A stretch of 64,000 bases of DNA from Aquificaceae bacterium (GCA_046297555.1 JBKBHW010000002.1:14385-78384); one strand, 5' to 3'; counted from the stretch's first letter, positions 46,686 to 63,127 are shown. Made by a program: numbers and translations. Notes: a model not told the origin generated them from the letters alone.

Positions 46686-47740
46686 ACTGCCACCTTTGCG
46701 CCAAGGAAGGCTGCAGCCTCCGCCGCCGCCGCTTCCCCTTCTGAGAAGGAGGATTCTATGTCTATGGGTCCTTTGCAAGCTCCCGCTATGAATATACCGG
46801 GCTTGTTGGATATGATGTTAGAGCCAGACTCTTCAGAGGGTATGAGGAATTGGCTATCGGGGTCTTGGGCAAGTCCAAGGATCTTTGCCACCTTCTTGGT
46901 TCCGGGGGAAGGCTCCATACCAAGCACCAAGACCACCAAGTCCATAGGAACTTCAGAGGGCCTTTGTACTATGGTGTCTTCATGCTTTATCCTTAGCCTG
47001 CCGTCGGCGGGGCTGTAGGTAATCTCTGCTATCCTACCCCTTACATACCTAACACCGTACTTCTCTTGGGGTGCCCAGTAAAAAGGATACTCCCAAGTGC
47101 CGTAGGTTCTTACATCCATGTAGTAGCAAAAGACATCCACATCCGGGTAATGTTCTTTTATTTCGGAACCTTGGAGCCCCGATAGGGCACAGCCATACCT
47201 ACAGCAATGTACGTTGGTAAGGCCAAGCTGCCTGTCCCTTGATCCCACGCAAAAGACAAAGGCTACCCTCTTGGGCAGTTGTCCGTTGGAGGGCCTGTAT
47301 AGCCTTCCCTCTTGAGAAAACATCCTTTCAAGCTCAAGGTTGGTTATCACATCGGGATAGAGGCCATAGCCAAGCTCTCCCTTTCTCCTTGGGTCAAAGT
47401 GTTCAAAGCCTGTGGCCACCACTATGGCACCCACCTCATGCTTTTCCCCGTTGGAAAGGGTTACTTTGTAAGATCCGGGTTCTCCTTCACAGGCTGTGAG
47501 CTCTGTGTTTAAAAGCACCTTGATGTTTGGGTTGCTTTCCACCTCCTTTATGTAAGGACCTATCACCTGGGAGGGCTTTAGCTTTCTTGGGATAAGGGTG
47601 TGGTAGTGGTTTTTAATGGGGTTCCCACCCAGCTGACCGTCCTTTTCCACCAGTATGGTGGAGATGCCAAGCCTTCCCAAAGTTCTTGCTGCCGCAAGTC
47701 CTGCTGGACCACCTCCTACAACCAGCACGCTCTTTGACAT
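46682..47740 (-). CDS. sHdrA, short FAD/Fe-S heterodisulfide reductase-like subunit A
   Basis: VVGGGPAG FAD motif, FCVGSRD, CCRYGC, DVRTYG, AGACKGPIDI; 352 aa. Confidence 0.92.
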   Translation of the reverse strand: MSKSVLVVGGGPAGLAAARTLGRLGISTILVEKDGQLGGNPIKNHYHTLIPRKLKPSQVIGPYIKEVESNPNIKVLLNTELTACEGEPGSYKVTLSNGEKHEVGAIVVATGFEHFDPRRKGELGYGLYPDVITNLELERMFSQEGRLYRPSNGQLPKRVAFVFCVGSRDRQLGLTNVHCCRYGCALSGLQGSEIKEHYPDVDVFCYYMDVRTYGTWEYPFYWAPQEKYGVRYVRGRIAEITYSPADGRLRIKHEDTIVQRPSEVPMDLVVLVLGMEPSPGTKKVAKILGLAQDPDSQFLIPSEESGSNIISNKPGIFIAGACKGPIDIESSFSEGEAAAAEAAAFLGAKVAV

Positions 47741-47790
47741 GTTATACCTCCTTAATTAGTTCTTTAAGGGGGCAAAGCCCCCATAAAAGC

Positions 47791-49152
47791 TTAGGACTTA
47801 AACAAGGGCATATTGGCGGTGGCAGAAGCCCTTGGCTTACCAGTGGAGGTCTTGCTGTAAGGCTCATAAAGGTCGTACTCTTTGAAGAACTCCATGAGCT
47901 CATCATACTTTCCAGCCTTTTCAAGCTCCGCTATGTATTTGACCGTGTCTTCCCACTCTTTCCTTAGCTCTCTCCAGTTGGTAATACCCATCTTTTCAAG
48001 AAGAGGCTCGTAGTTGGAGCAGTTCCAGTAAAGCTGTACCACCTTGAAGGGATGAGCTCCACAAGCCAACGCGGCAAACATCACATCAGACATGACGGCA
48101 ACGGGATGGTACATGCCGTGAGCCTTTCCTATCCACTGGTTCTTTTCAAAGGTGGTGGTACAACCAGTATCGTGGGTTACTATAAGGTCTGCCTTTACTT
48201 CCTCCGCTATAACCTTTAGTTTTCTTTGTATGGCAAAGGACCTTGTAAACTCTCTCTCCGTTAGTATGTGCCTAAAGCCAAAGCCGCAGCAATCGTACCA
48301 AGTGGAGTAATCCACTATCTGGGCTCCAAGGGCCTTTACTACGGCGGCGGAGGCAGCAGGTCTTTGACCGTTGTAAACCTCTGGGTCATAAGGATAGTCA
48401 TCGGCTATCATCTTGTAGGTGTGGCAAGCGTTGTGGATTGCCACCCTTACATTAGATACATCTATTCCCTTTGCCTTACCCTCCTTTTGATAAAGCTCGG
48501 CAATCTTGTGCCTCATAGCATGGACCCATTCGGAATAGTGGACTATCTCTTGGGGTATTACTATCCTTCCGTCCTCTGTAAGTCTTCCAAGCTTTTTGAG
48601 AATGGGCTTTACCGCATCCCTGAGTTCTTTGTTCATTATAAGCTGCTCTCTGGTTTCCTTGTAGGACCCAAAGGAGGTTCCGCAGTGTATCAGAGGATAA
48701 TAGCCCGTCTTCCAAGCTTGGTGCATGTTTCTGAGCCAGACTGCCGCAAGGGCCACTGGGTTAGAGGTGCCAGAGCCGTGATAGTTCCATGCAGTACAGG
48801 AAGTTTGGTGTGGCTCGTTTAGATAGTCAAGCCCAAACTTGTTCATAAACCAGAAAACAGAAGCTGGATATCCCGGTATATTTCCACACTGGCCGCAAGA
48901 CTTGTGATGCCACAGCTTGTTGGTGGGGATGGTCTTTATCCTTCCAGTCCTTGTGTAGACCTCCACAGGCTGGTTCTCTTCGGTGATCCTATATATGAGA
49001 ATTTCACCCTTCGCCTCCAGCTCCTCCATCATCTCAAAGATATGGTCGTAGTGGGCGCTGTACTCTTTGAGAGGGAAGGGTGGCTCTTTGGGGTATCTTA
49101 AAAGGCCTCCGGGGCTGTTGTGCCCAAAGCCATGTCCGTGTGCCATGATCAT
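47791..49152 (-). CDS. sHdrB1
   Basis: HKSCGQCGNIPG, TSCTAW, HCGTS, HNACH, YDCCGFG, HDTGC. Confidence 0.9.
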   Translation of the reverse strand: MIMAHGHGFGHNSPGGLLRYPKEPPFPLKEYSAHYDHIFEMMEELEAKGEILIYRITEENQPVEVYTRTGRIKTIPTNKLWHHKSCGQCGNIPGYPASVFWFMNKFGLDYLNEPHQTSCTAWNYHGSGTSNPVALAAVWLRNMHQAWKTGYYPLIHCGTSFGSYKETREQLIMNKELRDAVKPILKKLGRLTEDGRIVIPQEIVHYSEWVHAMRHKIAELYQKEGKAKGIDVSNVRVAIHNACHTYKMIADDYPYDPEVYNGQRPAASAAVVKALGAQIVDYSTWYDCCGFGFRHILTEREFTRSFAIQRKLKVIAEEVKADLIVTHDTGCTTTFEKNQWIGKAHGMYHPVAVMSDVMFAALACGAHPFKVVQLYWNCSNYEPLLEKMGITNWRELRKEWEDTVKYIAELEKAGKYDELMEFFKEYDLYEPYSKTSTGKPRASATANMPLFKS

Positions 49153-49195
49153 ACCTCCTTAAAAGTTTTTTTGGGCTTCAAACCCTTTTTTAAGC

Positions 49196-49924
49196 TTACT
49201 CCTCTTCTTCGTAGAGCTCCTCATACCTTTCCTCGTTCTCTTCCACTATGTCCATTATGACGTTGTAAAGGTTGGGGTCAAGCTTTTCAAGCATTTCAAA
49301 GATTCCCGTTTCTCTCCATATGGTGTACATTTCTATGGCCGTTTCCAAAGAAACTTCCCAAGCGGTTTTTACAGATTTTCCTACATCAAAGGGGATGGCA
49401 AGCCTTTTTGCCCTTAGGTTTTCCATGTTGTCTGCCATCTTGGGTCCCCAGTCTGGGAAGAAGTCGGGCTGTAGCATGTCTGCAGAAAGCTGGTTTCCTG
49501 TAGTCATAACCTTTAGAAGGACTCTTCCGTAAGGCTTAAGAAGGTCTTTGGTGGCTTCAAAGGCGTTTCTGACAGCCACCTCCCTCATTATTGCCACGAG
49601 ACCGCCGGGATTGTTTACAAAGGGGCATCTTATCCAACAGGTAAAGCACTGGGAACATGCCCATATGTACTCATGCATCATATCATAGAGAACTTCCACA
49701 TCTTCTTCCAAGAACCTTTGGACTATCTCTCTTGGAGAGTAATCAAAGAACCTGTTAGAAGGACAGGAGGCGGTGCATACACCGCAGTTAAGACAGCCAA
49801 AGATGTATTCTTTAAAGCGGAAGTCCGATTTTACTTCTTCTACCACGCGCACTTTTTCTTCCCAAGGCACAGCCTTGGTCTTCTCCGATATGGGCAGGTT
49901 GTATCCGTAAGGATGTCCTTCCAT
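49196..49924 (-). CDS. sHdrC1
   Basis: CLNCGVCTASCP and CSQCFTCWIRCP. Confidence 0.9.
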   Translation of the reverse strand: MEGHPYGYNLPISEKTKAVPWEEKVRVVEEVKSDFRFKEYIFGCLNCGVCTASCPSNRFFDYSPREIVQRFLEEDVEVLYDMMHEYIWACSQCFTCWIRCPFVNNPGGLVAIMREVAVRNAFEATKDLLKPYGRVLLKVMTTGNQLSADMLQPDFFPDWGPKMADNMENLRAKRLAIPFDVGKSVKTAWEVSLETAIEMYTIWRETGIFEMLEKLDPNLYNVIMDIVEENEERYEELYEEEE

Positions 49925-49982
49925 GGTTAAACCTCCTATAGCTTTATTTCCATAAAGTTATTACCTAGGTGATTATAGTCAA

Positions 49983-49997
49983 ATAAATTTTGCTTAT
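49983..49997. promoter_or_regulatory. Candidate LysR-type (T-N11-A) operator upstream of sHdrC1
   Basis: ATAAA-TTTTG-CTTAT, next to a minus-strand TATAAT; resembles the box before tusA. Confidence 0.35.
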
Positions 49998-50041
49998 ATG
50001 AATTTAAGTATATGCTTATAAACCTAAAGACAAAAAAAGGG

Positions 50042-50458
50042 TTAAAGGGTAATAACTGCATACTCGCCGCTCATAAGCTTATCAAGGAAGGCAGCACCAC
50101 CTATTATGCCATCGCAGAGCTCGGGGTTCACATCTTCCTTCTTGTATATCTCTGTAAGGTCAAGGGATGGCACGCAAAGGTATATCTTAACCCCGGCCTC
50201 CTTCGCCATCTTTATAAAGTCGTAAACTGTTTGTTCTACGCCGGGCCTCACCTTTACCTTCTTTGCATTGTCCCTCATAAGGAGGAAGCCTGCCTCTGAG
50301 GTTATAACCATCTCCACCTCATAGTCCATGGTGGTAGCAGCCGTTGCCAAGAAGAAGGGGGCTCCCGCCTGTGGGTTTATAAGCTCCCCCGTGGTAGGCT
50401 CCGCCCTTTCAAAGAATGGCACCGTTAGGATGTAAAAGAGTACCTTTTCATAAGCCAT
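50042..50458 (-). CDS. DsrE-family protein (DsrE3-like)
   Basis: QAGAPFFLA, AKEAGVKIYLC; directly upstream of sHdrC1. Confidence 0.82.
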   Translation of the reverse strand: MAYEKVLFYILTVPFFERAEPTTGELINPQAGAPFFLATAATTMDYEVEMVITSEAGFLLMRDNAKKVKVRPGVEQTVYDFIKMAKEAGVKIYLCVPSLDLTEIYKKEDVNPELCDGIIGGAAFLDKLMSGEYAVITL

Positions 50459-50469
50459 CTCTATCCTCC

Positions 50470-51003
50470 TTAAACGAATATTATCATAGGCTTATCCGCT
50501 TCAATTACATAGTTTATAAAGGTTGCAGCGCCTGCGGGCGGCTCAAGACCATCTATTAGGTCCTCATACTTATAGCCAAAAAGCTCCATAGTCATCTGGC
50601 ATGGGATAAGCTTTACATCTGCCTCTTTGCAAGCTTCTATGAGCTCTGGTATGCTTGCCACACCATGCTCCTTTATGGTCTTCTTCATCATAAAGCTCAT
50701 AAGGTCTGTCATACCGGGGATTATACCCATTATCTGAGGAGGGCCGGGAAATATGGAAGATATGGCGTTGGTCGCAGGATTCTGCATAGAGGGTGGAAAA
50801 GCCATGGGCATGGCGGGGTTTCCTATGGGTGCTATCTTAAGTTCATGCATCTTCTTTTTGTGTATTATGTTTAGACCATAAAAAGTGAAGAATATAGCCG
50901 TTTCTATGCCAAGGGAAGCAGCAGTGGAGGCAAGTATAAGGGGTGGATAGGCCATATCAAGGGTTCCCTTGGTGGCTATTATGGCAAGTCTTTCGGTAGC
51001 CAT
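50470..51003 (-). CDS. DsrE2/DrsE-like (DsrE/DsrF/DrsH) family protein
   Basis: KGTLDMAYPPLILA, IFFTFYGL, KLIPCQMTM, GAATF. Confidence 0.88.
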   Translation of the reverse strand: MATERLAIIATKGTLDMAYPPLILASTAASLGIETAIFFTFYGLNIIHKKKMHELKIAPIGNPAMPMAFPPSMQNPATNAISSIFPGPPQIMGIIPGMTDLMSFMMKKTIKEHGVASIPELIEACKEADVKLIPCQMTMELFGYKYEDLIDGLEPPAGAATFINYVIEADKPMIIFV

Positions 51004-51016
51004 CTTTTATCCCTCC

Positions 51017-51253
51017 CTATTTTTTCCTAAGGTAAAAGATTATCTTTCCCCCTTCTTCTACCACCTCAAGAAGTTGATGACCCGTCCTGTTGCAAAAAGC
51101 CGGTATGTCTGCTTTGGCGCCGGGGTCGGTAGTTATAACCTCTAAAACCTGACCTGATTGAAGCTCCTCAATAGCCTTTTTTGTTTTTAAGACAGGAAGG
51201 GGACAGTTAAGCCCAGAGGCATCCAAGGTTTTGTCTGGTGTAATGGTTGCCAT
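51017..51253 (-). CDS. tusA: Sulfur carrier TusA
   Basis: LDASGLNCPLPVLK (CPxP), DPGAKADIPAFC; AGGAGG RBS before ATG 51253. Confidence 0.95.
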   Translation of the reverse strand: MATITPDKTLDASGLNCPLPVLKTKKAIEELQSGQVLEVITTDPGAKADIPAFCNRTGHQLLEVVEEGGKIIFYLRKK

Positions 51254-51333
51254 TTTAATCACCTCCTAAGTAAGGTTATTCTTTTATTATAGTTCTTAGA
51301 GTTTAGATTGTCTTAAAAATATGTGATAAAGAT

Positions 51334-51348
51334 ATAAGCTGTCCTTAT
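51334..51348. promoter_or_regulatory. Candidate LysR-type operator upstream of tusA
   Basis: Palindrome ATAAG-CTGTC-CTTAT (T-N11-A), upstream of a minus-strand TATAAT. Confidence 0.4.
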
Positions 51349-51369
51349 AAATGCTTATATAATCCTTAA

Positions 51370-51674
51370 TACACGCCAGGTGAGAAATTACACCTTTGTA
51401 AAAAATAAACCTCTTGCGTGATAACATAAAGGCTCTTTTTCTTAAGGTAGCACAAGCATCCCTGCCTGTGAAAGAAAAAAGATTTAATCAAAAGACGCGG
51501 GCAAGGATGCCCGCGCTACCTCTATGGTTGCTCAAAACAAAGAGATAGAGCTTTGCCCACCCCTACCTATCTTATAGAACAAAAACTAATCATGCAAGAA
51601 GTTTAATAGTCAAAGATCGCAAGCGAGGATGCCCGCGCCCTATTCTCCATTAAAGAAAAAGAGAATTTCTCACC
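51370..51674. mobile_element. MITE-like copy (reverse orientation) with REP doublet
   Basis: Terminus 51370-51389, reversed AAAGAGCC module 51411-51440, type-B REP 51447-51470, inverted type-A 51496-51519, decayed A at 51618-51642, inverted partial terminus AATTTCTCACC 51664-51674 touching the DUF202 stop. Confidence 0.75.
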
Positions 51675-52327
51675 TATATAATCCTTAATACATAAAAGGT
51701 AAGCACCAAACAGGCAAGGAATATGATAAGTCCATAAACTTTGTAGTACCAAAGGCTTGTCCTATAAAAGCCCCTGTCCACCTGCCTCACCGTCCTGAAA
51801 AAGTTTATGGCACCCAGTATGAAGGTTATTATTCCTATGGCTATGATAAAGAGCCCTATTTTTGCCAAGTTATGGTGCTCCGCACTAAGGTGCATGTTAA
51901 AGACCTTTTCCAGCTGTACTATAAAAAACTCAAACCTTTCAATGACAAAGCCAAAGATAATTAGGGCTATGGCTGTTCTAATCCACGCAAGGAAGGTCCT
52001 TTCTGCAGCCATGTAGATCCTTGGGTCTATAACCTCTTTGGGTTCCACCATTATACCTCCATCTATATAAAGTATATTCTTGTAAAAGTTTATAGATGCT
52101 ATAAGAATAAAAAGAACACCAAATATGGCTAAGATTATTGAAGTGGCTTGCAAAAGGACGGATGTGTGTATCTTTTGGACTGCTTGAGCTATGATTTCAA
52201 GCTTTTCTAAAAAGACGGCAAAGGAGAGGGCGTAGAGAGAGAGTCTGATAGACCCTAAGTAGCTCCTCTCCAACGACATGTATATACGAGCATCCCTCGC
52301 AGAGGGTAGACTTTTTGCCAGCAGCAT
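51674..52327 (-). CDS. Tandem-domain DUF202 (YidH-like) membrane protein
   Basis: Two copies of the DUF202 signature: ERSYLGSIRLSL and ERTFLAWIRTAIAL. Confidence 0.82.
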   Translation of the reverse strand: MLLAKSLPSARDARIYMSLERSYLGSIRLSLYALSFAVFLEKLEIIAQAVQKIHTSVLLQATSIILAIFGVLFILIASINFYKNILYIDGGIMVEPKEVIDPRIYMAAERTFLAWIRTAIALIIFGFVIERFEFFIVQLEKVFNMHLSAEHHNLAKIGLFIIAIGIITFILGAINFFRTVRQVDRGFYRTSLWYYKVYGLIIFLACLVLTFYVLRII

Positions 52328-52328
52328 G

Positions 52329-52622
52329 TCAGTGGCTTAGCCAAAGAACGTCGGATAGGATGCAGATGCCACCTGCCCTTTTCAAGATGGGCCCAACATC
52401 CTGCACTATCTTATCAGCCACCTCTTTTGTGCAAACGGTAAATATGTAGCTGTTTTTGAATACGTCAGTTAGCTCATCCCCAGCCATTATACCCCTTTCA
52501 CCCTTGCCAAGGGCGTCCTTTATGACTGTGTAGCCCGATACCCCAGCTTTTTCAAGAACTTCAAGTACCCTATTTAAAAACACACTGTCTACTACTATCT
52601 CTACCTTTTTCATTGCCTCCAT
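52329..52622 (-). CDS. sbtB: PII-like carbon regulator SbtB
   Basis: KKVEIVV, LEKAGVSGYTVI, GKGERG; 4 nt downstream of sbtA. Confidence 0.85.
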   Translation of the reverse strand: MEAMKKVEIVVDSVFLNRVLEVLEKAGVSGYTVIKDALGKGERGIMAGDELTDVFKNSYIFTVCTKEVADKIVQDVGPILKRAGGICILSDVLWLSH

Positions 52623-52626
52623 GTTA

Positions 52627-53598
52627 TCACCCCCATAGGGAATTTACTATGTAGTAATACAAAGGTATGCCCACTGCTATATTAAAGGGAAAGGTTATTG
52701 CCAATGCCATGGTTACATAAAGGCTTGGGTTTGCTTCCGGCACAGAAAGCCTCATGGCGGCGGGCACTGCTATGTAAGAGGCGCTGGCGCATAGCACAGA
52801 AAACATAAAGGCATCCCCCTTTTGCAATCCAAAGAACTTTGCAAGAGCAATGCCTACCACTGCGTTGAAGATAGGAATCAATACACCAAAGGCTACAAGG
52901 AATATACCCACCCTTTTTATCTCTCCTAACCTTCTTCCTGCCACCAAGCCCATATCCAAAAGGAAGAAGGCAAGCATACCTTTAAAGAGGTTTCCAAACA
53001 CAGGCTCTACAGCCTTCCATCCCTTTTCCCCCGTCAAAAAGCCTATTAGGAGAGTGCCCATCAATATGTAAACAGAAGGATTTAAGAAAGCCTCTCTAAA
53101 TACCTCTCCCCAGTTCATCTGGGAGTTGTTTCCTCTTTTGGCAAAGAGGGCCGGAAGGATCAGTCCTACTACTATGGCTGGTGATTCCATAAGGGTCATG
53201 GCGGCCACCATGTATCCGCTGTAATTCTCTCCAAGAGTGTTAAGGAAAGCTGCTGCTGTTATAAAGGTAACGGCGCTGATGGATCCATAAGTAGCTGCTA
53301 TGGCCACCGCATTGTAAACATCAAGCTTTAGTCTAAGTATAAAGAAGGTGTATATTGGCACAGCCACCGCCATAAACATCGCCAAAAGTAGCACTTTAAG
53401 AACTTCAAAGGTTATACCACTTTTTGAGAGCTCATAACCTCCGTGAAGGCCTATGGCTATAAGAAGGTAGAGGGAAAAGAGCTTAGGTAAAGGTTGTGGA
53501 ATTTCAAGGTCTGTTTTAAAAAGCACCGCTCCAAGGCCCAGTAGGAACATAAGCACCGGCGGATTAAGTATGTTTTGCAAAAGAAGGTCAATGCCCAT
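52627..53598 (-). CDS. sbtA: Sodium-dependent bicarbonate transporter family (SbtA/DUF897)
   Basis: LSLYLL..IGLHGG equivalent, AATYGSISAVTF, LMESPAI, FFLLDMG, ASASYIAVPAAMR, ITFPFNIAVGIPLY. ATG 53598. Confidence 0.92.
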   Translation of the reverse strand: MGIDLLLQNILNPPVLMFLLGLGAVLFKTDLEIPQPLPKLFSLYLLIAIGLHGGYELSKSGITFEVLKVLLLAMFMAVAVPIYTFFILRLKLDVYNAVAIAATYGSISAVTFITAAAFLNTLGENYSGYMVAAMTLMESPAIVVGLILPALFAKRGNNSQMNWGEVFREAFLNPSVYILMGTLLIGFLTGEKGWKAVEPVFGNLFKGMLAFFLLDMGLVAGRRLGEIKRVGIFLVAFGVLIPIFNAVVGIALAKFFGLQKGDAFMFSVLCASASYIAVPAAMRLSVPEANPSLYVTMALAITFPFNIAVGIPLYYYIVNSLWG

Positions 53599-54487
53599 CT
53601 TCACCTCCTTCAATGAATACTAAAAAGGAGGGTCCTTTGTAGTCTGGTACTTCTATGGGGCTATCTATGTGGCCAAAGGAGTAGTTTATGGCCACGGGTA
53701 AGGGATAGTTTTTCAACCTTACTATTCCCTTTGCCCTTATTACTTTTTCCGGAAGCTTTCTTAATCTTTCTTCGAGCTCCATGTAATCTACAGGTTCTAT
53801 AAGGTTTACTATACTTTGCCTGTGGTGGTGCTGGTGGTGGTGGGGAACCTCCTTAAGCTGAGGAAGGGAATATACACCATCAAAGACCTCCTTTGGTAAT
53901 TTCCCGTGAGAAGTTTCATAGAGCCTTACCTTGCTGTAAAGAGGTTCATTGGTAAAGTAGTTGATGGGCCTGTAGGCATGCCATATCTCCATAACCTCCT
54001 TCCTTATCCCTTCCAACCTGTTTTTGTCATCCAAAAGGTCTATTTTGTTGAGCACCAGTATGTTGGAGCCACCTATCTGGTACTTGGCCGTGCTGTCTTC
54101 TTTGTATCTTTCAAAGTTGGCAGCGTCTATAACACACAGGACACCTTCCACGGTACATCCTAAGGCTTGCAGGCTTATTAAAACGGGAAAGGGCACCGCA
54201 CCCCCAGAGGTCTCCACAAGAAGCAGCTTTGGATTGTACTTTTCCTTTATCTCTTCCAGAGCCTTCTCAAACTCCGAATGTAAAGAACAACATATGCAGC
54301 CCTCGGGAAGCTCCAACACCTCTGAGTAGGCGTTTTTCAAAATCTTGCCGTCTACCCCTACCTCTCCAAGCTCGTTTACTATAACCGCCACTTTTTTTTC
54401 TCTGAAGTATTCCCTTGCAGAGTTTATCAGAAAGGTAGTCTTACCGCTTCCCAAAAAGCCTGTTATAACGAAGGCGGGCAGCATCAC
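53588..54487 (-). CDS. CobW/COG0523 (G3E) metallochaperone GTPase
   Basis: ITGFLGSGKTT, VNELGEVGVDG, GCICC, VETSG, LNKID, His-rich HHHQHHH, RAKG C-terminal domain. Confidence 0.92.
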   Translation of the reverse strand: MMLPAFVITGFLGSGKTTFLINSAREYFREKKVAVIVNELGEVGVDGKILKNAYSEVLELPEGCICCSLHSEFEKALEEIKEKYNPKLLLVETSGGAVPFPVLISLQALGCTVEGVLCVIDAANFERYKEDSTAKYQIGGSNILVLNKIDLLDDKNRLEGIRKEVMEIWHAYRPINYFTNEPLYSKVRLYETSHGKLPKEVFDGVYSLPQLKEVPHHHQHHHRQSIVNLIEPVDYMELEERLRKLPEKVIRAKGIVRLKNYPLPVAINYSFGHIDSPIEVPDYKGPSFLVFIEGGEDGH

Positions 54488-54783
54488 TCCCCGCCGTACT
54501 CTACCGAGTCAATCTCCTCCATGAACCGCTGTATTTGAAAGGCTACAAAGTTGGCAAGGTCCTTCACATCCTTTTCCCAGTATTCAGGGTCTATGTCTAT
54601 CTCCTTCTCGTACACATCGTGCCCTTCCACTATGTACTTTACCTTTACGTAGGGGTAGCTCTTTACCTCACAGCCTTCTTCCATCTCCTCTGGAAAGCAT
54701 AGCTCCAAGTCCAGGTCGGGATTTGCCATGTTTTTAAAAACTTCCTCTTTTAAAACCTCAAACTTCCTTTCTATATTCTCCAT
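54484..54783 (-). CDS. Small acidic protein following the oxidoreductase epsilon subunit (ForF position)
   Basis: About 99 aa, acidic, 11 nt after the ferredoxin-like subunit; position matches forF in the Hydrogenobacter forDABGEF operon. Confidence 0.6.
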   Translation of the reverse strand: MENIERKFEVLKEEVFKNMANPDLDLELCFPEEMEEGCEVKSYPYVKVKYIVEGHDVYEKEIDIDPEYWEKDVKDLANFVAFQIQRFMEEIDSVEYGGE

Positions 54784-54794
54784 AGCTTTCCCCC

Positions 54795-55019
54795 TTAATC
54801 GGAAGCGGTTACCATAACCATTTCTATACAGTGTCTTTTTAAAAGGTCGGAGCAAACGTAAACGCATATGGCACAGCCCTTACACCTTGAATAGTTCACC
54901 CATGCCACATGCTTGGAGTTATGGTACATTAGAGTGTTTGGCTCTGGGCAGAAAAGGACGCACTGCTTACAGTTATATTTGGCACAATCCTGCTCCTTTA
55001 CATCCGCCACATAGTACAT
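54795..55019 (-). CDS. forE: Ferredoxin-like epsilon subunit of the five-subunit 2-oxoacid:ferredoxin oxidoreductase
   Basis: CAKYNCKQCVLFCP and CKGCAICVYVC. Confidence 0.75.
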   Translation of the reverse strand: MYYVADVKEQDCAKYNCKQCVLFCPEPNTLMYHNSKHVAWVNYSRCKGCAICVYVCSDLLKRHCIEMVMVTASD

Positions 55020-55046
55020 GCCTGCCTTGCCTCCTTATAACCTATT

Positions 55047-55730
55047 TTAGCCTGTTAGGGCCTCTTCTTCAATCCATCCCCTTTCCTCCGCTATTTTAAA
55101 GGCTTCTCTGATGACTTGCATGTTCTTCTCAAGGAGTTCCATCTTTTTCTTAAACTTCTTTTCTATGGCGCTGTCAAGGGATGCGGTGCCACCGGAAGCC
55201 ACAAAGGTATTGCCCAAAAACCTCTCTCTTACCGCCTGCTCTATGTGTTCAAAGCCTACGAGCCTTGTTATACCAAAGAAAAGACCTAACATAGCCATGT
55301 TGGTGGCAAGCTCCGTCCCAGCTATCTCAAGGGCTATTTTTGTAGCTGGAAACATGTAAACCTTAGTATCAAGCTCCCTTAATATAGCCCAATCCTCTGG
55401 AGGTATTATATCCACATCCGTGTTGATGATAACCAGCCCCTTTTCCTTCAATCCAGAGTAAAAAGGCATGGTATAGGATTTTCCATGGGTTATGACTTGT
55501 GGGTGGTATATCATTATTACATTGGGATAGACCACCTCTCCCACTTCGTATATGGGCTGGTCTGATGCCCTAACATAGGCTTCCACTGGAGCCATTCTCT
55601 TTTCCGAACCAAAGAAGGGAACTAAGGTAGCATACTTGCCAGCCGCAGACATGGCATTGCCAAGGATGTGGGCGGAGGTGACCACCCCCTGCCCACCAAC
55701 ACCCGCTATCCTTATGTTATACCTTTTCAT
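55047..55730 (-). CDS. forG: 2-oxoacid:ferredoxin oxidoreductase gamma subunit
   Basis: RIAGVGGQGVVT, PFFGSEKRMAPV, NMAMLG. Confidence 0.82.
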   Translation of the reverse strand: MKRYNIRIAGVGGQGVVTSAHILGNAMSAAGKYATLVPFFGSEKRMAPVEAYVRASDQPIYEVGEVVYPNVIMIYHPQVITHGKSYTMPFYSGLKEKGLVIINTDVDIIPPEDWAILRELDTKVYMFPATKIALEIAGTELATNMAMLGLFFGITRLVGFEHIEQAVRERFLGNTFVASGGTASLDSAIEKKFKKKMELLEKNMQVIREAFKIAEERGWIEEEALTG

Positions 55731-56593
55731 GCCTTTACCTCCTCCTTTTGCTTTTCTATTTCTTCAAAGAACTCTTTTACCTCATCCGTCATCCACTCAT
55801 AAAAACCAAAGTCTTGCTTTTCTCTCTTTCTGGCGTCTTCAAGCACTTTTTCTGTGGGTATGGAGTATTCTATGTTGCAAGAGGTGTAGGCGTGAATGAA
55901 GGTAGGTCCAAAGTGCCTTGCGGCAAGTATAGCCCTTTTTACGGTTTTTGCAATTCTCTTTGGATTGGTGGGGGCAAGCTTTGCCACATAAACACAGCCA
56001 GCGGTTTTTGCAAGCTCCACTGCGTTTATCTTGTCAAACTGTTTGCCCTTTGGAGCCATCTTAAGCTGAACACCCTTTGGGGACATGCCGCTTTCTTGAC
56101 CGCCCGTGTTTCCATAAACCTCGTTGTCCACCATTATGGTGGTAAACTTTTCCCTTCTAAACCAAGAGTGCATAGTCATACCAAAGCCTATGTCTATTAG
56201 TCCACCATCGCCAGCTATAACAACCACATCTTTAATCTTGTCTGGGAACCTTATGCTAAGGGCTCTTTTTAGGCCAGAGGCTACTGCGTTGGTATCTCCA
56301 TAGTTTCCGTATATAAAGGGCACAGCTGCCTGAGAAAGGGAAAGCCTTGCACATCCAGCCGTGCCTATAACTATAGTATCCTCTGGATTGGGAAGGGCGG
56401 CATAAAACACCCTTATAAAGTATGCCATAAAGCATCCTGCACACATGGGGTGTTCTTCCACAAGCTCCTTGAACTGGCCAAGCTGCTGCACATCTACCTG
56501 CCTGCCAAACTGCCCATATTGGACCAAATCTACATAGTCCTTGGGCATGTATTTCTCAAAGCCCGGCGAAATCCTTATGTACTCCAAGCCCAT
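55727..56593 (-). CDS. forB: 2-oxoacid:ferredoxin oxidoreductase beta (TPP-binding) subunit
   Basis: MCAGC, TAGC, AGDGG, DNEVYGNTGGQ, YTSC. Confidence 0.82.
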   Translation of the reverse strand: MGLEYIRISPGFEKYMPKDYVDLVQYGQFGRQVDVQQLGQFKELVEEHPMCAGCFMAYFIRVFYAALPNPEDTIVIGTAGCARLSLSQAAVPFIYGNYGDTNAVASGLKRALSIRFPDKIKDVVVIAGDGGLIDIGFGMTMHSWFRREKFTTIMVDNEVYGNTGGQESGMSPKGVQLKMAPKGKQFDKINAVELAKTAGCVYVAKLAPTNPKRIAKTVKRAILAARHFGPTFIHAYTSCNIEYSIPTEKVLEDARKREKQDFGFYEWMTDEVKEFFEEIEKQKEEVKA

Positions 56594-56615
56594 TTTTACA
56601 CCTCCTTAAAGTTTT

Positions 56616-57785
56616 TTATACAACAACCTTCCTTTCCTTCTTTATACCAAGAGCTTGGTATATCTTTTCCATGATAAGCTCTACGGGCAATGTCATGCCG
56701 CCGTAGACCCTTGGACCCCCTATAACTTTATCATTGTCTGGTATGGCCGCCCTTATTTCCTTTGCAAGCCAGCCTATTATGTTATGCTCCGGCACTATCA
56801 CAGCCTTTGCCTTTGAAAGGACCTCTCTTATTTCTTTTTCTGGGAAGGGTCTTATAGATTTAACTTTTACAAGGCCTACGTTTAGACCTTCAAGCTGGGC
56901 GTACCTTACCGCTTCCCTTCCTTGGGCTGCGGCGCATCCAGAAGCTACCACAAAAACTTCCGCATCTGGGTTGACAACTTCTATAGGTCCTCCAAGGTAC
57001 TTGTATATATACTTCATAGCTCTTATGTTAGAAGCCCAAACCTCTTGCTGCCATACAGCATGTATCAGATAGCTCATAAAGTTGGATTTTTGCACTGGTG
57101 CATCCCTTTGGATCCTTGCCGGTGGGATCTCACAGTCGGTGGGCGGCACAGGTGCCTTGTAAGGGTCTCTTGGTGGAAGCTTCATATCTTCGGGTGTCAT
57201 GTTCACATAACCCTTGGCGTGAGTAACAAAGAAGCCCTCAGTACATACCGCTACCGGTATGTATACATCAACCATCTCCGATATGATAAAACCTGCAAGG
57301 GTAAAGTCAAAAACATCCTGTTGGTTTTCGGCATGTAAAACCACAATGCCAGAGTGTAAAAGGTATGCAATTTCTACATTGTCTGGCTGTATGGAAAGAG
57401 GTGCGTTAACCACTCTTGTGAGAACTCCAAGCACCGCAGGTATTCTGTGTCCGGGCCAAGAGGCTATGGCTTCCATGCCTCTCAAAAGCCCAGGACCGGA
57501 GGTAGCTGAAAAGGCCCTTGCCCCTCCTCTTACCGCCCCCGCTATAGCCGACATGGCACCGTACTCCTCCTCCGCTCTATAGTAATCCCTTAAGTAGCCT
57601 TGTGCCCATATATCCCCCACAAGGTGCATAACTTCCGATTGGGGAGTGATGGGATAGGCTATGGCTATATCCACATTGGCACGCTTTACGGCCTCTGCCA
57701 TAGCTTGGGCACCCGTTATAAACTTCCTCTCTCTGGGTGCCTCCAAAAGAAGGTAATCGGCATCTACAACCTTTTGTTCTGGCAT
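56616..57785 (-). CDS. forA: 2-oxoacid:ferredoxin oxidoreductase alpha subunit
   Basis: AYPITPQSE, EEEYGAMS, ATSGPG, RPFP. Confidence 0.82.
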   Translation of the reverse strand: MPEQKVVDADYLLLEAPRERKFITGAQAMAEAVKRANVDIAIAYPITPQSEVMHLVGDIWAQGYLRDYYRAEEEYGAMSAIAGAVRGGARAFSATSGPGLLRGMEAIASWPGHRIPAVLGVLTRVVNAPLSIQPDNVEIAYLLHSGIVVLHAENQQDVFDFTLAGFIISEMVDVYIPVAVCTEGFFVTHAKGYVNMTPEDMKLPPRDPYKAPVPPTDCEIPPARIQRDAPVQKSNFMSYLIHAVWQQEVWASNIRAMKYIYKYLGGPIEVVNPDAEVFVVASGCAAAQGREAVRYAQLEGLNVGLVKVKSIRPFPEKEIREVLSKAKAVIVPEHNIIGWLAKEIRAAIPDNDKVIGGPRVYGGMTLPVELIMEKIYQALGIKKERKVVV

Positions 57786-57801
57786 GGCACTACCTCCACT
57801 T

Positions 57802-58515
57802 TTATTCCGTTTCTGTTACATGCTCTCCCCTTCTGGGGATCAAAAGATAAGAATATTCACCATAGTCAAGTACAGAAAGGGTTTGATACTCTTCCTTGGG
57901 AAGGGATGGGTTTTCTGGTGGAAGCTTGGGCTCCCACTTTATTCCAAGCTCTTCCCTCACTTGGACAAGCACATCCCTAAACCTTCTGATCTCATCGGCA
58001 TGGACATCTCTCAAAGATACCATGGCATCCTCGTGGCCAAGCTCACCGCACAGGGCTATGGTAAAGCAGTTGGTACCAGCCCTTATCATCCTAAGGGATA
58101 GGTTTGCATAATGACAATGTACTCCCACAAAAATACACGCCTCTATCTTGTTGTGGAGGATAGTTAGGTTGGGATGGTTTGGGTTTATTTCTGCCTCTGG
58201 GTCTATTTTGGGATACTTGGGCCTGTAGTCGGGCATAGGTATGATCCTACAGTTGGGTATTTCCATGGCAAGTTCAAGGACGGCCTTTGCCTTTTCCATG
58301 GCGCTTGCGTTCCAACCCCACAAGACTAAAGGACCCGGGAATATGGTAGGATTTCTTCTTGTAAGTAAAGCCTTTGCGGCTTCTCTCATTGCTGTTTCTT
58401 CATCCACTATCTTTCCATAAAGCAGTGCCTTTCCGGGTGGTGGCAATTCAACACCTTCAAAGGCTGCTGGTGTTGGCATATAGCCCGTAGGACCTGGTAA
58501 AACTTCCATTGGCAT
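57802..58515 (-). CDS. forD: Delta subunit of the Aquificae five-subunit 2-oxoacid:ferredoxin oxidoreductase (probably 2-oxoglutarate:Fd oxidoreductase)
   Basis: NPTIFPGPLVLW, EINPNHPNLTI..NKI, GVHCHYAN. The gene order D-A-B-G-E-F matches the for (OGOR) operon rather than porEDABG. Confidence 0.78.
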   Translation of the reverse strand: MPMEVLPGPTGYMPTPAAFEGVELPPPGKALLYGKIVDEETAMREAAKALLTRRNPTIFPGPLVLWGWNASAMEKAKAVLELAMEIPNCRIIPMPDYRPKYPKIDPEAEINPNHPNLTILHNKIEACIFVGVHCHYANLSLRMIRAGTNCFTIALCGELGHEDAMVSLRDVHADEIRRFRDVLVQVREELGIKWEPKLPPENPSLPKEEYQTLSVLDYGEYSYLLIPRRGEHVTETE

Positions 58516-58595
58516 GCCTTACCTCCTTTAGAATAGGTTATTAAAAAATTAGCATGAGCTTAAATAGTGTCAAGGGGAAAATGGTATGATAAAAG

Positions 58596-58784
58596 TCATT
58601 TTTCCTTCCCTTTATCTTCCAATTCTTTTATCCTTTTTTCCCTCATCTCCTCGTACTTTGGTCCCACCTTCTTGTACACCTTATCTGCTATGAGGGCGAT
58701 GATGATAAACAAGGGCACTCCTATGATTACCATAATTAGTAAAAGCTTTCCAAAGAAGACCAGCAAGTTGATCAAGTTCTCCAT
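58596..58784 (-). CDS. Small single-pass membrane protein (62 aa)
   Basis: Hydrophobic N-terminal helix and charged tail; ATG 1 nt after the leuS-beta stop. Confidence 0.6.
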   Translation of the reverse strand: MENLINLLVFFGKLLLIMVIIGVPLFIIIALIADKVYKKVGPKYEEMREKRIKELEDKGKEK

Positions 58785-58785
58785 G

Positions 58786-59649
58786 CTACACCACCAAGTT
58801 TAAGAGTTTGTTCTTTATAAATATTACCTTTTTTATTTCCTTGTCCTTTAGCCACTGGCTTATCTTCTGGTCCCTTAGGGCTATTTCCTTTACCGTATCC
58901 TCTTGCGCATCCACGGGTACCCTTATAACACCTCTAAGCTTACCGTTTATCTGCACGGGGATCTCCATCTCTTCCAAAAGCAGGGCTTTTTCATCGGGCT
59001 TTGGAAAGGGATAAAAAGGCATTAACCTTTCATACCCAAGCCTTTGCCATAGCTCCTCGCATATATGGGGGGTTATGGGATATAGCATAAAGAGGATGGT
59101 TTCAAGGGATTCTTTTAAAACCTTGTAATCTTTCTCCTCCTTTGGTTGGAATTCTTGCAGGGTGTTTAAAAGCTCCATTATACCAGCTATGGCGGAGTTA
59201 AAGGAGAGGTCCTCCATACTTGCCAAGTATCTTTTTAGCGTTTGATGGGTTTTGTATCTTATGTTTTTTGCCTCCTGAGGAAGGTCGGAAAAGTCTTCCC
59301 TTGAGTAAGTTATACCCCTTATCTTGTCAAGGTGTTGATGGAAATAGCTCCAAAGCCTTCTTAAAAACCTGTAAGCTCCTTGGACCCCTTCCTCCGTCCA
59401 CTCAAAGTCCTTTTCCACAGGGCCTGCAAAGAGTATATAGAGCCTTATGGTGTCAGCACCATACCTTTTTATAACCTCTTCTGGGTCCACTGTGTTCCCC
59501 TTAGATTTGGACATCTTGGCAGACTCCCCTATCTTTGCCTCCAAAGCCCTTATGTACTCCTCCCTTTCCAGCCCGAGCTTGTTTAAAAGAAGATAAAAGT
59601 TGTCCCCTATGCTAAGGTTGTTCTCCTTTAAGAATTCCATAACCTTCAT
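58786..59649 (-). CDS. leuS: Leucyl-tRNA synthetase beta subunit (split LeuRS)
   Basis: AKMSKSKGNTVDP, YGADTIRLY, FNSAIAGIMEL, PITPHICEELW, VQINGKLRG, no HIGH domain. ATG 59649, 287 aa. Confidence 0.93.
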   Translation of the reverse strand: MKVMEFLKENNLSIGDNFYLLLNKLGLEREEYIRALEAKIGESAKMSKSKGNTVDPEEVIKRYGADTIRLYILFAGPVEKDFEWTEEGVQGAYRFLRRLWSYFHQHLDKIRGITYSREDFSDLPQEAKNIRYKTHQTLKRYLASMEDLSFNSAIAGIMELLNTLQEFQPKEEKDYKVLKESLETILFMLYPITPHICEELWQRLGYERLMPFYPFPKPDEKALLLEEMEIPVQINGKLRGVIRVPVDAQEDTVKEIALRDQKISQWLKDKEIKKVIFIKNKLLNLVV

Positions 59650-59673
59650 AAGAAATAATATTAAAGCAAAGGA

Positions 59674-59933
59674 TACGCCGAGTGAGAAATTCAACCTTTA
59701 TAGGGATGGTTTATGAAATGCCTATTCATTAGATTTCTTGCGCGATAACATAAGGGCTCTTTTCCCCCTCCCGTAGTTCAAGTTTATGAAAGGTAGCGCA
59801 GGCATCCCTGCCTGTGGAAAAAGATTTAACCAAAAACGCAGGCAAGGATGCCCGCGCTACCGACTTTGGTGTATAAACTTTTAATTCATGTAGCCTTCCC
59901 TGTCCTTCGGGCGACCTTTATGGTCGCCCCTAC
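59674..59933. mobile_element. MITE-like copy (reverse orientation) with REP doublet and a type-D REP
   Basis: Terminus 59674-59691 plus ~85 bp matching the reverse complement of about 3297-3385; type-B 59793-59816; inverted type-A 59837-59860; GGGCGACCTTTATGGTCGCCCCTAC at 59909-59933. Confidence 0.8.
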
Positions 59934-59996
59934 ATTTTCCTATTCAAAAAAACTAAAAGCAAAGGATGTAATATATTAATCACATGGAGGTATGCA

Positions 59997-60833
59997 ATGG
60001 GTGAAGTATCGCTTCTTATAGCCTTCAGCGCTGGTATTCTCTCCTTTCTTTCTCCTTGCGTTTTGCCCATAATACCGGGCTACATTTCATACATATCTGG
60101 TGTGGGAGCACGGGAGGTCAAAGAGAGGGGAGGCTTTAGCTGGGGTGTTTTTACCGCATCACTTCTTTTTGTTATAGGGTTTTCTGTAGTGTTTACGCTT
60201 ATGGGGGCAACTGCCACGGGAATTGGCGGATTGCTAAGAGAATACCAAGATTACATAGCCAAAGTGAGCGGTAGTGTGGTAGTCTTCTTCGGTCTACACT
60301 TTGCCGGCCTTATGTTGAGGCAAAACTTTTTAAAAGAGCTCTTGGGAGTTGCTTCTCTCTTTTTAGCTCTATTTCTATTCGGCATCATCTCACAAAAGCT
60401 GCTTTTTGACCTGCTTGGCATATTACTAATGGTGTCCTTCTTTTACCTTTTTGGTTTACATGATGCCCTCTACAGGCAGATGAGGAAGGAAATAAGAGGG
60501 AACCTTACGGGTATAGGTGCCATGCTTGTGGGCATTTTCTTTGCCTTTGGGTGGAGCCCTTGTATAGGTCCCGTGCTTGGATCCATACTCCTTTATGCAA
60601 GTCAACAAGAAACAGCCCTTCAGGGTGCTGCCTTACTCTTTGCATACTCCCTTGGCCTTGGCATACCCTTTTTGATAGCCGGCGGCTTCCTCTCTGCCTT
60701 CCTCGGCTTTGTGCGTAGGTTTAGCAAGCTCTTTGGAATAGTGGAGATAGTGGGCGGCCTTCTTCTTATTTTGCTTGGCTTTTTGATAACAACGGGCAAG
60801 CTGGCTGAGATCTCCTCAATACTTGGAGGCTAA
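59997..60833 (+). CDS. ccdA: Cytochrome c biogenesis protein CcdA (DsbD transmembrane domain)
   Basis: AFSAGILSFLSPCVLP and FAFGWSPCIGPVLGSIL, AYSLGLGIPF. Confidence 0.92.
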   Translation: MGEVSLLIAFSAGILSFLSPCVLPIIPGYISYISGVGAREVKERGGFSWGVFTASLLFVIGFSVVFTLMGATATGIGGLLREYQDYIAKVSGSVVVFFGLHFAGLMLRQNFLKELLGVASLFLALFLFGIISQKLLFDLLGILLMVSFFYLFGLHDALYRQMRKEIRGNLTGIGAMLVGIFFAFGWSPCIGPVLGSILLYASQQETALQGAALLFAYSLGLGIPFLIAGGFLSAFLGFVRRFSKLFGIVEIVGGLLLILLGFLITTGKLAEISSILGG

Positions 60834-61449
60834 GCCTTTGGATATACTTGTGGTAGATTATGGAATGGGAAATTTGAGAAGCGTTTCAAAGGCCCTTGAA
60901 AATGTGGGCTTTAGGGTCAAGGTAAGCTCAGAGGGTGAGGATATAAGGAGGGCCAACGCCATAGTTTTGCCCGGTGTGGGCGCCTTTAGGGATGCGGTTG
61001 AAAACCTAAAGAGGATGGGGCTTTACAGTGAGATAATAAGACATATTGAGAAGGGGAAGCCTTATTTTGGCATATGCCTTGGGTTGCAGCTTCTCTTTGA
61101 AAAAAGCTATGAGTTTGGGGAGTCGGAAGGCTTTGGTGTAGTAGAGGGGGAGGTAGTACTTCTTCCCACAAGTGTTAAAATACCACACATAGGCTGGAAC
61201 CAGCTCTGGAAGAAGAAGCCTTCTTCCATGCTTGAAGGTATAAAGGATGGAGAATACTTTTACTTTGTCCATTCTTACCATGTGGTACCTAAGAGGAAAG
61301 ACCTTATCCTTACCACAACCGACTACGGCATACACTTTGTATCTTCCATAGAATACGAAAACATCTTTGCTGTGCAGTTCCACCCCGAAAAGAGCCAAAG
61401 GGCAGGTCTTAAACTCCTTGAAAACCTTAGGAGGAGGCTTTATGGCTAA
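60823..61449 (+). CDS. hisH: Imidazole glycerol phosphate synthase glutamine amidotransferase subunit
   Basis: DYGMGNL, LPGVGAF, GICLGLQ, PHIGWN, YFVHSY, QFHPEKS. Confidence 0.97.
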   Translation: MEAKPLDILVVDYGMGNLRSVSKALENVGFRVKVSSEGEDIRRANAIVLPGVGAFRDAVENLKRMGLYSEIIRHIEKGKPYFGICLGLQLLFEKSYEFGESEGFGVVEGEVVLLPTSVKIPHIGWNQLWKKKPSSMLEGIKDGEYFYFVHSYHVVPKRKDLILTTTDYGIHFVSSIEYENIFAVQFHPEKSQRAGLKLLENLRRRLYG

Positions 61450-62113
61450 GCTTTGTATAGCCCTTGACACAAACCTTCCACAAGCTCTTGATCTTGTCAA
61501 GTCTTTAAGAGGTTATCCCTTGATCTTTAAGGTAGGATACAAGCTCTTTATATGCCATCACAGAGCAATAACGGATAAGGTAAAAGAGAATGGCTTTGAG
61601 CTCTTTTTGGACCTGAAGCTCCACGATATACCAAACACGGTAAAGGAGGGGGTTCTTTCTGCAAAGGATTTGGGCGCCGACTATCTTACCGTGCATCTTA
61701 GCTCCGGAAAAGAAGCTATGATACAAGCGGTAAGCTCAAAGGGAAAGCTGAAGCTCCTTGGGGTTAGCCTGCTTACAAGCCTTGAGGAAGAAGACTTAAA
61801 AGAGATGGGTGTATGCGTGGGAAGGGAGGATTATGTAATGGGCCTTGTAAAAAAGGGTGTGGAGTGGGGCTTAGATGGCGTGGTATGCTCAGGTTATGAG
61901 GCTCGGACGATAAGGGGAAAGGTGCCCCCGGGGTTTCTTATAGTGGTGCCGGGTATAAGGCTGGAGGGGGAGTCTAAGGATGATCAAAAGAGGGTGGTAA
62001 GCGTTGAGGAAGCTCTTGAGTCTGGTGCAGATATAATTGTGATGGGGAGAAGTGTGCTAAGGGCAGAAAATCCTATAAAGAGAGTAGAAGAGATTCTCCT
62101 CAGGATCACATAA
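61442..62113 (+). CDS. pyrF: Orotidine 5'-phosphate decarboxylase
   Basis: IALD, FKVG, DLKLHDIPNT, VVPGIR, VMGRS. Start trimmed to ATG 61442. Confidence 0.96.
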   Translation: MAKLCIALDTNLPQALDLVKSLRGYPLIFKVGYKLFICHHRAITDKVKENGFELFLDLKLHDIPNTVKEGVLSAKDLGADYLTVHLSSGKEAMIQAVSSKGKLKLLGVSLLTSLEEEDLKEMGVCVGREDYVMGLVKKGVEWGLDGVVCSGYEARTIRGKVPPGFLIVVPGIRLEGESKDDQKRVVSVEEALESGADIIVMGRSVLRAENPIKRVEEILLRIT

Positions 62114-62756
62114 GGCCAATGCTTTTTAGCGCCTCCTGTCTTTGGAGACATGTGGCACATAGGCCGCAGGGAGGCTCCGTTCCCATATAGCAAGAGTAAG
62201 TCTTTTCAAAGGGTACGCCAAGCTCCTTTCCAAGCTTTGCAATATCCCTTTTACTCATTCCAAGAAAGGGGGCATACAGGCTTATCCTTCTCTTTGTTTT
62301 TGCCACATAAGCGGAGGCAGAGTTAATGGCAGATTCCATGGCAGTTATAAACTCCACCCTACAGTCTGGATAAGGCGTGTCAAGGGCATGCACTCCTATG
62401 GCTATATGGTCTATCTCATAGCTATCTGCCAAGGAGCCTGCAATGGCAAGAAATACAAGGTTCCTCATGGGTACGTTGGTGGGGGGCACCTCTTCGCCAT
62501 ACGGCCCCTGTGGCACTTGTGGCCCACCCTCCAAAAGGGCTGAGCCTTTGATAAGCTTGTAATGCGGCACTTCCACTACTATGTGCTCCTTCACATGGGC
62601 AAGCCTTGCCAGCTCCTTGGCGTACTTTAGCTCCACCCTGTGCCTTTGCCCATATTCAAAAGAGAGGGTGTAGACCTCTTCAAACTCCCTTTTACATAGC
62701 CACAAAAGGGTGGCGCTGTCCATTCCACCAGAGAGCAAGACTATAACCTTTCTCAT
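62106..62756 (-). CDS. queC: 7-cyano-7-deazaguanine synthase
   Basis: LLSGGMDS, FEYGQRH, VPMRN, YPDCR, TYSCY, CGLCATC. ATG 62756 (the ORF-track extension is the tRNA). Confidence 0.96.
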   Translation of the reverse strand: MRKVIVLLSGGMDSATLLWLCKREFEEVYTLSFEYGQRHRVELKYAKELARLAHVKEHIVVEVPHYKLIKGSALLEGGPQVPQGPYGEEVPPTNVPMRNLVFLAIAGSLADSYEIDHIAIGVHALDTPYPDCRVEFITAMESAINSASAYVAKTKRRISLYAPFLGMSKRDIAKLGKELGVPFEKTYSCYMGTEPPCGLCATCLQRQEALKSIGLM

Positions 62757-62759
62757 CCT

Positions 62760-62846: not shown

Positions 62847-62873
62847 TAAGGATAAATTATATTATACTAATCC

Positions 62874-63100: not shown

Positions 63101-63127
63101 CTATAAAAATATAGTATCCGCCAAGTA

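Follow-up and report, generated by a model that had tools for sequence, protein, structure and literature searches.

A 64,000-nucleotide stretch from the genome of a hot-spring Aquificaceae bacterium (GCA_046297555.1, JBKBHW010000002.1:14385-78384; hereafter the window) contains ten open reading frames (ORFs) on the minus strand between positions 51674 and 58515, in the order forD-forA-forB-forG-forE-forF, cobW, sbtA, sbtB and a tandem DUF202 gene. The genome, which represents a genus of the Aquificaceae, comprises 1.45 Mb in 61 contigs and is 98% complete. The locus is probably an operon that joins the only 2-oxoglutarate:ferredoxin oxidoreductase (OGOR) of the genome (forDABGE, the CO2-fixing five-subunit For enzyme, which carboxylates succinyl-CoA in the reductive tricarboxylic acid [rTCA] cycle) to a conserved accessory forF-cobW pair and an sbtAB cassette for uptake of dissolved inorganic carbon (DIC), with the DUF202 gene as a passenger.

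The first gene, forD (57802-58515), encodes a putative delta subunit of the five-subunit enzyme that resembles carbon monoxide dehydrogenase (CODH) beta/acetyl-CoA synthase (ACS) epsilon (Pfam CO_dh, PF02552, E 5.8e-48). It is followed by genes for the predicted alpha subunit (forA, 56616-57785; POR_N and PFOR_II), the thiamine pyrophosphate-binding beta subunit (forB, 55727-56593; TPP_enzyme_C), the gamma subunit (forG, 55047-55730, overlapping forB by 4 nt; POR, E 2e-38) and an epsilon subunit similar to 2x[4Fe-4S] ferredoxins (forE, 54795-55019; Fer4 families and PorD_KorD). An acidic protein of 100 residues is encoded by forF (54484-54786), whose start was placed at the ATG for Met28 of a longer ORF reaching 54867. 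Next come a COG0523/G3E GTPase of the metallochaperone type with a GTG start (cobW, 53588-54487; Pfam cobW, PF02492, E 9e-44, and CobW_C, PF07683), a putative Na+/HCO3- symporter with an ATG start (sbtA, 52627-53598; Sbt_1, PF05982, E 2e-120, full length), a PII-like regulator of 97 residues (sbtB, 52329-52622; P-II, PF00543, E 1e-15, residues 4-92) and a membrane protein with two Pfam DUF202 stretches (51674-52327).

The genes share one strand, and all junctions are overlaps or gaps of at most 27 nt. forF and cobW overlap by 4 nt and cobW and sbtA by 11 nt (26 nt if sbtA starts at an alternative TTG at 53613), sbtA and sbtB are separated by 4 nt, and a single nucleotide lies between sbtB and the DUF202 gene. 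A GGAGG-like ribosome-binding site precedes nine of the ten genes, the DUF202 gene being the exception. A perfect TTGACA -35-like hexamer on the minus strand (58568-58573), 53 nt 5' of the forD ATG and followed by an AT-rich stretch with TAATTT after a 16-nt spacer, is a candidate operon promoter on weak evidence, its -10 element being poor and the consensus scan not passed. The likely operon end (51495-51638, minus strand) is formed by a GC-rich palindrome, GCGCGGGCATCCTTGCCCGCG, that occurs throughout the genome and is present here twice, a T-run following the second copy (51495-51516); this second copy and the one at about 51618-51638 are the first minus-strand terminator-like hairpins, and both come after the DUF202 gene. 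The next gene, tusA, has its own promoter-like site and a palindrome kept in relatives, which places the end of the unit ahead of the sHdr sulfur-oxidation cluster. An Rfam scan of 45000-64000 found one tRNA and a sub-threshold microRNA-family match; within the operon it detected neither a riboswitch nor a leader.

The For proteins share 92-94% identity (ForF, 79%) with those of the for locus of Hydrogenobacter thermophilus TK-6, where the OGOR of five subunits is encoded by forDABGEF (Yun et al. 2002, cited in PMC2607301). A paralogous cluster on contig C8, porEDABG, is 46-67% identical to For (forA, 48%) and differs in gene order, E-D-A-B-G as against D-A-B-G-E(-F) with a CO_dh-like delta subunit. 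On these identities the locus is orthologous to the characterized For of TK-6, not to Por, and the predicted enzyme is a 2-oxoglutarate synthase that uses ferredoxin. No korAB was found in the genome, in which por on C8 is the only paralogue, so For is the sole OGOR detected. A small-subunit orthologue of 2-oxoglutarate carboxylase (OGC; E 7e-295 to PDB 7KCT) is encoded on the contig of the window, some 5 kb ahead of the window's first base, and the genome encodes two further biotin carboxylases; OGC, pyruvate carboxylase and acetyl-CoA carboxylase are not separable by NCBIfam, and the OGC small subunit was identified by PDB matching.

An earlier note, made from the sequence of the window, had described these ten minus-strand genes with the same overlaps and gaps, and the ORF listing bears it out. 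Its gene identities were right, with agreement from Pfam for all but forF, which matches no family, and its assignment of the For enzyme is upheld by Pfam and by the identity to TK-6. An internal terminator after forF, which the note took as grounds for rejecting a single unit, was not seen in the hairpin scan of 51674-58515; the consensus promoter and terminator scan is used here solely for that absence. The note had also stated that OGOR uses CO2 and the next step HCO3-; this stands (Table 1 of PMC10880623), and the genome has the 2-oxoglutarate carboxylase that uses bicarbonate.

SbtA covers positions 1-307 of the 308 of the PF05982 profile and is homologous to the solved Synechocystis SbtA (7CYE, E 3.6e-26), in which the Na+ site is formed by main-chain atoms and S114, Y140, S324 and S327 are proposed, from docking, as HCO3- residues (PMC8352866). 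It is assigned as a probable Na+/HCO3- symporter of this family (TC 2.A.83), its substrate being inferred from family and context. The cyanobacterial sbtA-sbtB operon, which belongs to the CO2-concentrating mechanism (7CYE/7EGK; PMC8352866), consists likewise of a homologous transporter gene and an adjacent PII-like gene in the same order. The cyanobacterial transporter has 374 residues as compared with 323 here, most of the difference falling between the two halves, and it is partnered with RubisCO and carboxysomes, whereas the partner here is a ferredoxin-dependent carboxylase. The product of the adjoining sbtB matches PII-like proteins in PDB, including the PII protein 5D4N and SbtB chains, with the T-loop region included. 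Unlike the cyanobacterial protein, it has no C-terminal CGPxGC redox motif, its 97 residues ending in ...SDVLWLSH; the motif is not universal among SbtB proteins (PMC8352866).

The locus was compared across 178 Aquificota genomes of 34 genera (handles G and g, respectively), including TK-6 (G034), Thermocrinis albus (G072), T. minervae (G083), Hydrogenivirga caldilitoris (G010) and Aquifex aeolicus (G001). The ForD/PorD-type delta subunit occurs in 105 genomes of 15 genera, and the For-type matches, of 75% identity or more, fall in these same 15; the cobW orthologue occurs in 87 genomes (14 genera), dabA in 61 (12 genera) and sbtA in 39 (8 genera). Every genus with a five-subunit For carries dabA, sbtA or both. 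The order forE-forF-cobW-sbtA-sbtB is present in 21 of 21 same-genus genomes with a locus, and forDABGEF-cobW-sbtA-sbtB recurs in four genera (that of the window, g6, part of Thermocrinis [g9] and g10); with this recurrence the arrangement is not chance.

In other lineages the slot is occupied by an unrelated uptake system. TK-6 has the same forDABGEF order, and cobW follows forF there too, but the slot after cobW holds dabB-dabA-PII in place of sbtA-sbtB, and korAB lies next door. The arrangement forDABGEF-cobW-dabB-dabA-PII, checked by Pfam, is shared by TK-6 and its genus, Hydrogenivirga and part of Thermocrinis (g9). In g11, g12 and genome G011 dabB-dabA-PII follows forDABGEF with no cobW between; in the Hydrogenothermaceae g13, g15 and g17 the order is forDABGEF-cobW, then dabB and dabA in either orientation, then porEDABG; and in G130 (g21) sbtA-sbtB is inserted between dabB and dabA. 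In metagenome-assembled genomes (MAGs) of Campylobacterota, porEDABG-cobW (CobW 49% identical) is followed by a convergent dabB-dabA unit and then forDABGE. One same-genus genome (G070, locus L097) has both cassettes in one string, forDABGE-dabB-dabA-PII-forF-cobW-sbtA-sbtB, and in another genome (G029, locus L063) all that is left of dabA is a 264-bp piece, containing a stop codon, immediately behind cobW, with sbtAB at a different site next to a TetR-like gene; the two are snapshots of cassette turnover. Among the matches listed, 47 of the 75 genomes with For plus sbtA or dabA have a transporter gene no more than 12 kb from forD, many of the genomes with no scored linkage being fragmented assemblies, and cobW lies within 6 kb of forD, following forF, in 44 genomes. 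Two unrelated uptake systems (SbtAB and DabBA-PII) recur at one carboxylase locus, inserted at differing points and in differing orientations, and do so in a second phylum as well. No stronger evidence is available for a functional link between the five-subunit oxoacid:ferredoxin oxidoreductases (OFORs) and DIC uptake, and that link is strongly supported.

The linkage that the earlier note proposed to look for by synteny is thus conserved across the Aquificales and some Campylobacterota MAGs. Its reading of the locus as a carbon-supply module for the rTCA cycle gains from the interchange of SbtAB and DabBA-PII in the slot; the ten-gene operon as such is not conserved, and cobW tracks For. Conservation of the ten-gene string breaks down at the DUF202 gene, which occupies this site only here and in one close relative.

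Two surveys by Scott and co-workers (PMC10880623, 2024; PMC13147460, 2026) report that in Aquificota the genes for DIC transporters often share a location with OFOR genes; that components of the DIC toolkit (SbtA, DAC/Dab and carbonic anhydrase) are found together with OFORs of the rTCA cycle in Aquificota, Nitrospirota and Campylobacterota; and that the Aquificaceae tend toward transporters over carbonic anhydrases. The mechanism is described there as unstudied. The phenomenon seen at this locus is the same. The carbon-supply reading is supported and is not new in kind: co-location of transporter and OFOR genes is published, and the finding is less novel than the earlier note assumed. The available portions of the same surveys make no mention of a same-slot exchange of cassettes or of relocation of DUF202, and CobW does not occur in PMC13147460 (0 occurrences). 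In the literature searched, nothing relevant was found on COG0523 proteins with a ferredoxin oxidoreductase or DabA, and recent papers on five-subunit OFORs are silent on COG0523.

Several observations weigh against an operon that couples For to bicarbonate uptake. The for, cobW and dabA genes are scattered in Aquifex and Hydrogenobaculum; the co-oriented sHdr cluster also follows in two genera, which makes co-orientation alone weak evidence; promoter- and terminator-like matches are no commoner in the region than in shuffled sequence; and of the four proposed HCO3- residues of SbtA, two are kept or conservatively replaced (S114 to T111, S324 to S274), and two differ (Y140 to M134, S327 to A277), which is why the substrate is taken from family and context. 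It is unlikely that the adjacency is simply inherited gene order, with sbtAB transcribed and used independently of For: the unrelated sHdr neighbour and the unlinked sbtAB of g17, g7 and G029 would fit such a history, but stop and start codons overlap, so that no space remains between the genes, and two non-homologous DIC systems stand at the same position, with varied orientation and insertion point, in two families and a second phylum. That the SbtA homologue carries something other than bicarbonate is quite unlikely; the two differing ligands favour it, and no member from the Aquificales is known to have been assayed, but the full-length PF05982 match, the paired PII-like gene and the same-slot interchange with DabBA all point to bicarbonate. 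The DUF202 gene is single-copy in 54 of the 178 genomes and follows sbtB only in the window's genome and the close relative G067; in all others, including same-genus genomes with sbtAB, it lies elsewhere, beside a fumarate-reductase-like gene, rpiB/atpF or other genes. It is read as a relocated gene and incidental passenger. A working partnership with SbtAB, for example as a membrane accessory subunit, would suit the 1-nt gap and the shared order in G067, but is very unlikely given the variable sites in all remaining genomes and the lack of a ribosome-binding site of its own.

The CobW protein carries the motifs GSGKTT (P-loop), CICC, ETSG and NKID, which do not change across orthologues, as well as a CobW_C domain and a linker rich in His (HHHQHHH), which does. 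No NCBIfam equivalog reaches its cut-off. Other COG0523/G3E GTPases (YjiA [1NIJ], ZigA, CobW and the activator of Fe-type nitrile hydratase) share the P-loop, CxCC, ETSG, NKxD, CobW_C and His-rich linker; the genomic partner differs from theirs in being a five-subunit OFOR and DIC transporter cluster, for which no description was found. The 14 genera with cobW all fall within the 15 with a five-subunit For, g11 being the one For genus that lacks it, as compared with eight genera for sbtA. cobW adjoins forF in genomes without sbtA, and the two genes stay together in G070, in which the insertion of the dab genes is upstream of forF; cobW belongs with the five-subunit For, not with SbtA or a carbonic anhydrase. 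The neighbours of unlinked cobW genes (Aquifex, Hydrogenobaculum, g12 and G131) include no recurrent partner.

Conserved residues in ForD may be relevant to the function of CobW. The structural model of ForD (pLDDT 67) matches the fold of the CODH/ACS epsilon subunit, and no PDB match was obtained by sequence or profile; no structure of a five-subunit OFOR exists (PMC13768988). The ForD/PorD family is small, comprising 122 representative clusters among 1.84 billion proteins. Its common invariant residues are H133-C134-H135, C150, C156, H161 and H172 (57990-58120; ForD residues about 133-172); two of these, C134 and C156 (ForD numbering), are retained without exception even by distant fusion proteins of the family, and H133 and H161 are nearly invariant family-wide. 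These four residues sit just past adjacent beta strands of the Rossmann-like fold, and the Cys/His residues form a possible metal or redox site. ForF, which has no Pfam or NCBIfam family, is restricted to the Aquificales. Its C-terminal tail, EEIDSVEYGGE (54484-54520), is identical in 20 of 20 diverse homologues, in which the rest of the protein falls to 45% identity, and may be a docking or modification motif. An alpha-beta3-alpha fold is predicted for ForF (AlphaFold model, pLDDT 80), with no significant PDB fold match (best E 0.04). With its ...EYGGE ending, ForF might conceivably be a LysW-like carrier protein.

Outside the window, the C-terminal part of a 726-residue protein (contig C4, 48028-50208) resembles ForD (CO_dh; 36% identity by tblastn); on reading the sequence, this part appears to be fused to an N-terminal region like lipoate-protein ligase and a Cys-rich middle. 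A third ForD-like copy of this fusion type is present in most Aquificaceae genomes and adjoins an sbtA copy in G045.

Among candidate clients of CobW, the For/Por system itself is rated the likeliest, though tentatively, and is more likely than a carbonic anhydrase; the genomic context points to the For/Por and DIC-uptake cluster. COG0523 proteins are often zinc chaperones, and the earlier note had offered, as one option, a zinc carbonic anhydrase that acts on the bicarbonate taken up and is matured by CobW. The CxCC motif and His-rich linker would suit such a role, and one gamma-class carbonic anhydrase homologue is encoded on contig C22 (E 8.5e-58 to PDB 9QEV). That gene is unlinked, however, no beta (0 of 25) or alpha (0 of 25) carbonic anhydrase was found in genomes of the window's genus, and the distribution and position of cobW follow the five-subunit For, also where sbtA is absent; the suggestion is poorly supported, and such a client is improbable. 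The original client may instead have been DabA, the zinc-binding, beta-carbonic anhydrase-like subunit of the Dab CO2-uptake complex, with CobW a leftover here, or in another role, after SbtAB replaced Dab; we regard this as doubtful. In its favour, 24 genomes among the matches listed have cobW at a distance of 22-3200 nt from dabB or dabA, cobW is near these genes in Campylobacterota too, and DabA carries zinc-ligand residues (PMC13147460). On the other side, cobW is intact, conserved (CICC, ETSG and NKxD invariant) and tightly coupled in g1, g6, g7 and g10, where only G070 has dabA among the genomes tallied, and g11 has For and DabA with no cobW. No dabA was found in the window's genus except in G070, and a DabA client cannot explain the retention of cobW in that genus. 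If For/Por is the client, CobW, possibly with ForF, could be a dedicated maturation or repair factor for oxygen-tolerant five-subunit OFORs that loads metal onto the ForD Cys/His cluster, a proposal we hold to be speculative. The conserved COG0523 gene at the five-subunit For/Por cluster is unreported in the literature searched and is the most interesting element of the locus.

The flanks of the locus contain several repeats. Up to four substitutions being allowed, the 21-nt palindrome GCGCGGGCATCCTTGCCCGCG has 203 matches on both strands of the 1.45-Mb genome, and copies in the window lie at 51496-51516, 51618-51638, 59796-59857, 3215, 14141, 63032 and elsewhere; it behaves like an intergenic repeat of the REP (repetitive extragenic palindromic) type. 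The sub-threshold Rfam match, to mir-1788 (59791-59862), overlaps two copies of GCGCGGGCATCCTTGCCCGCG and is probably spurious. A 17-nt direct repeat, GTATTAAGGATTATATA, at 51674-51690 and 51356-51372 bounds a stretch of about 300 bp with two palindromes 3' of the DUF202 gene; this stretch is absent from the close relative G067 and looks like an insertion that duplicated the 3' end of DUF202. Upstream of tusA (51280-51350), the palindrome TATAAG-N5/6-CTTATA followed by TCTTTATCA is conserved in same-genus genomes, and a promoter-like site, AAGACA-17-TATAAT, adjoins it; the palindrome is a possible operator of the sHdr cluster. In G050 (locus L035, 10544-11611) an opposite-strand glycosyltransferase-like gene is inserted between sbtB and tusA, and this intergenic spot is a recurrent insertion site. 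Directly 5' of forD, the interval 58596-59694 holds a gene that, by the look of its sequence and with no family search made, resembles the C-terminal part of a leucyl-tRNA synthetase encoded in pieces, together with a gene for a 62-residue membrane protein. Three genera or more keep both immediately upstream of forD; TK-6 and T. albus have korAB, in divergent orientation, inserted between forD and this pair.

The proposed operation of the system is as follows. One mRNA would begin 5' of forD and end at the hairpins after the DUF202 gene; SbtA would import HCO3- with Na+, and the PII-like SbtB would gate it by adenine-nucleotide state. The cytoplasmic HCO3- pool would feed the biotin carboxylases (2-oxoglutarate carboxylase and pyruvate carboxylase) directly, and its dehydration would provide For and Por with CO2. 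At about 70 °C this dehydration would be fast uncatalysed, perhaps with some contribution from the unlinked homologue of gamma-class carbonic anhydrases. Beyond the transporter, a CO2-concentrating mechanism of the cyanobacterial type, with a carbonic anhydrase confined together with the carboxylase in a microcompartment, is not seen, the genus having no alpha or beta carbonic anhydrase and the genome only an unlinked gamma-class homologue (shell genes were not searched for); the system may act as a cytoplasmic HCO3- pool rather than as a carboxysomal mechanism.

How DIC supply is matched to CO2- and HCO3--using carboxylases in rTCA autotrophs that have no carboxysomes is flagged as an open question in PMC10880623. 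The locus and its relatives provide a clean natural experiment, in which one carboxylase operon occurs with either uptake system, with both or with a fresh replacement after loss. The conservation of a COG0523 GTPase inside the For/Por cluster in two phyla points to an unrecognized metal-handling step in oxygen-tolerant CO2-fixing enzymes.

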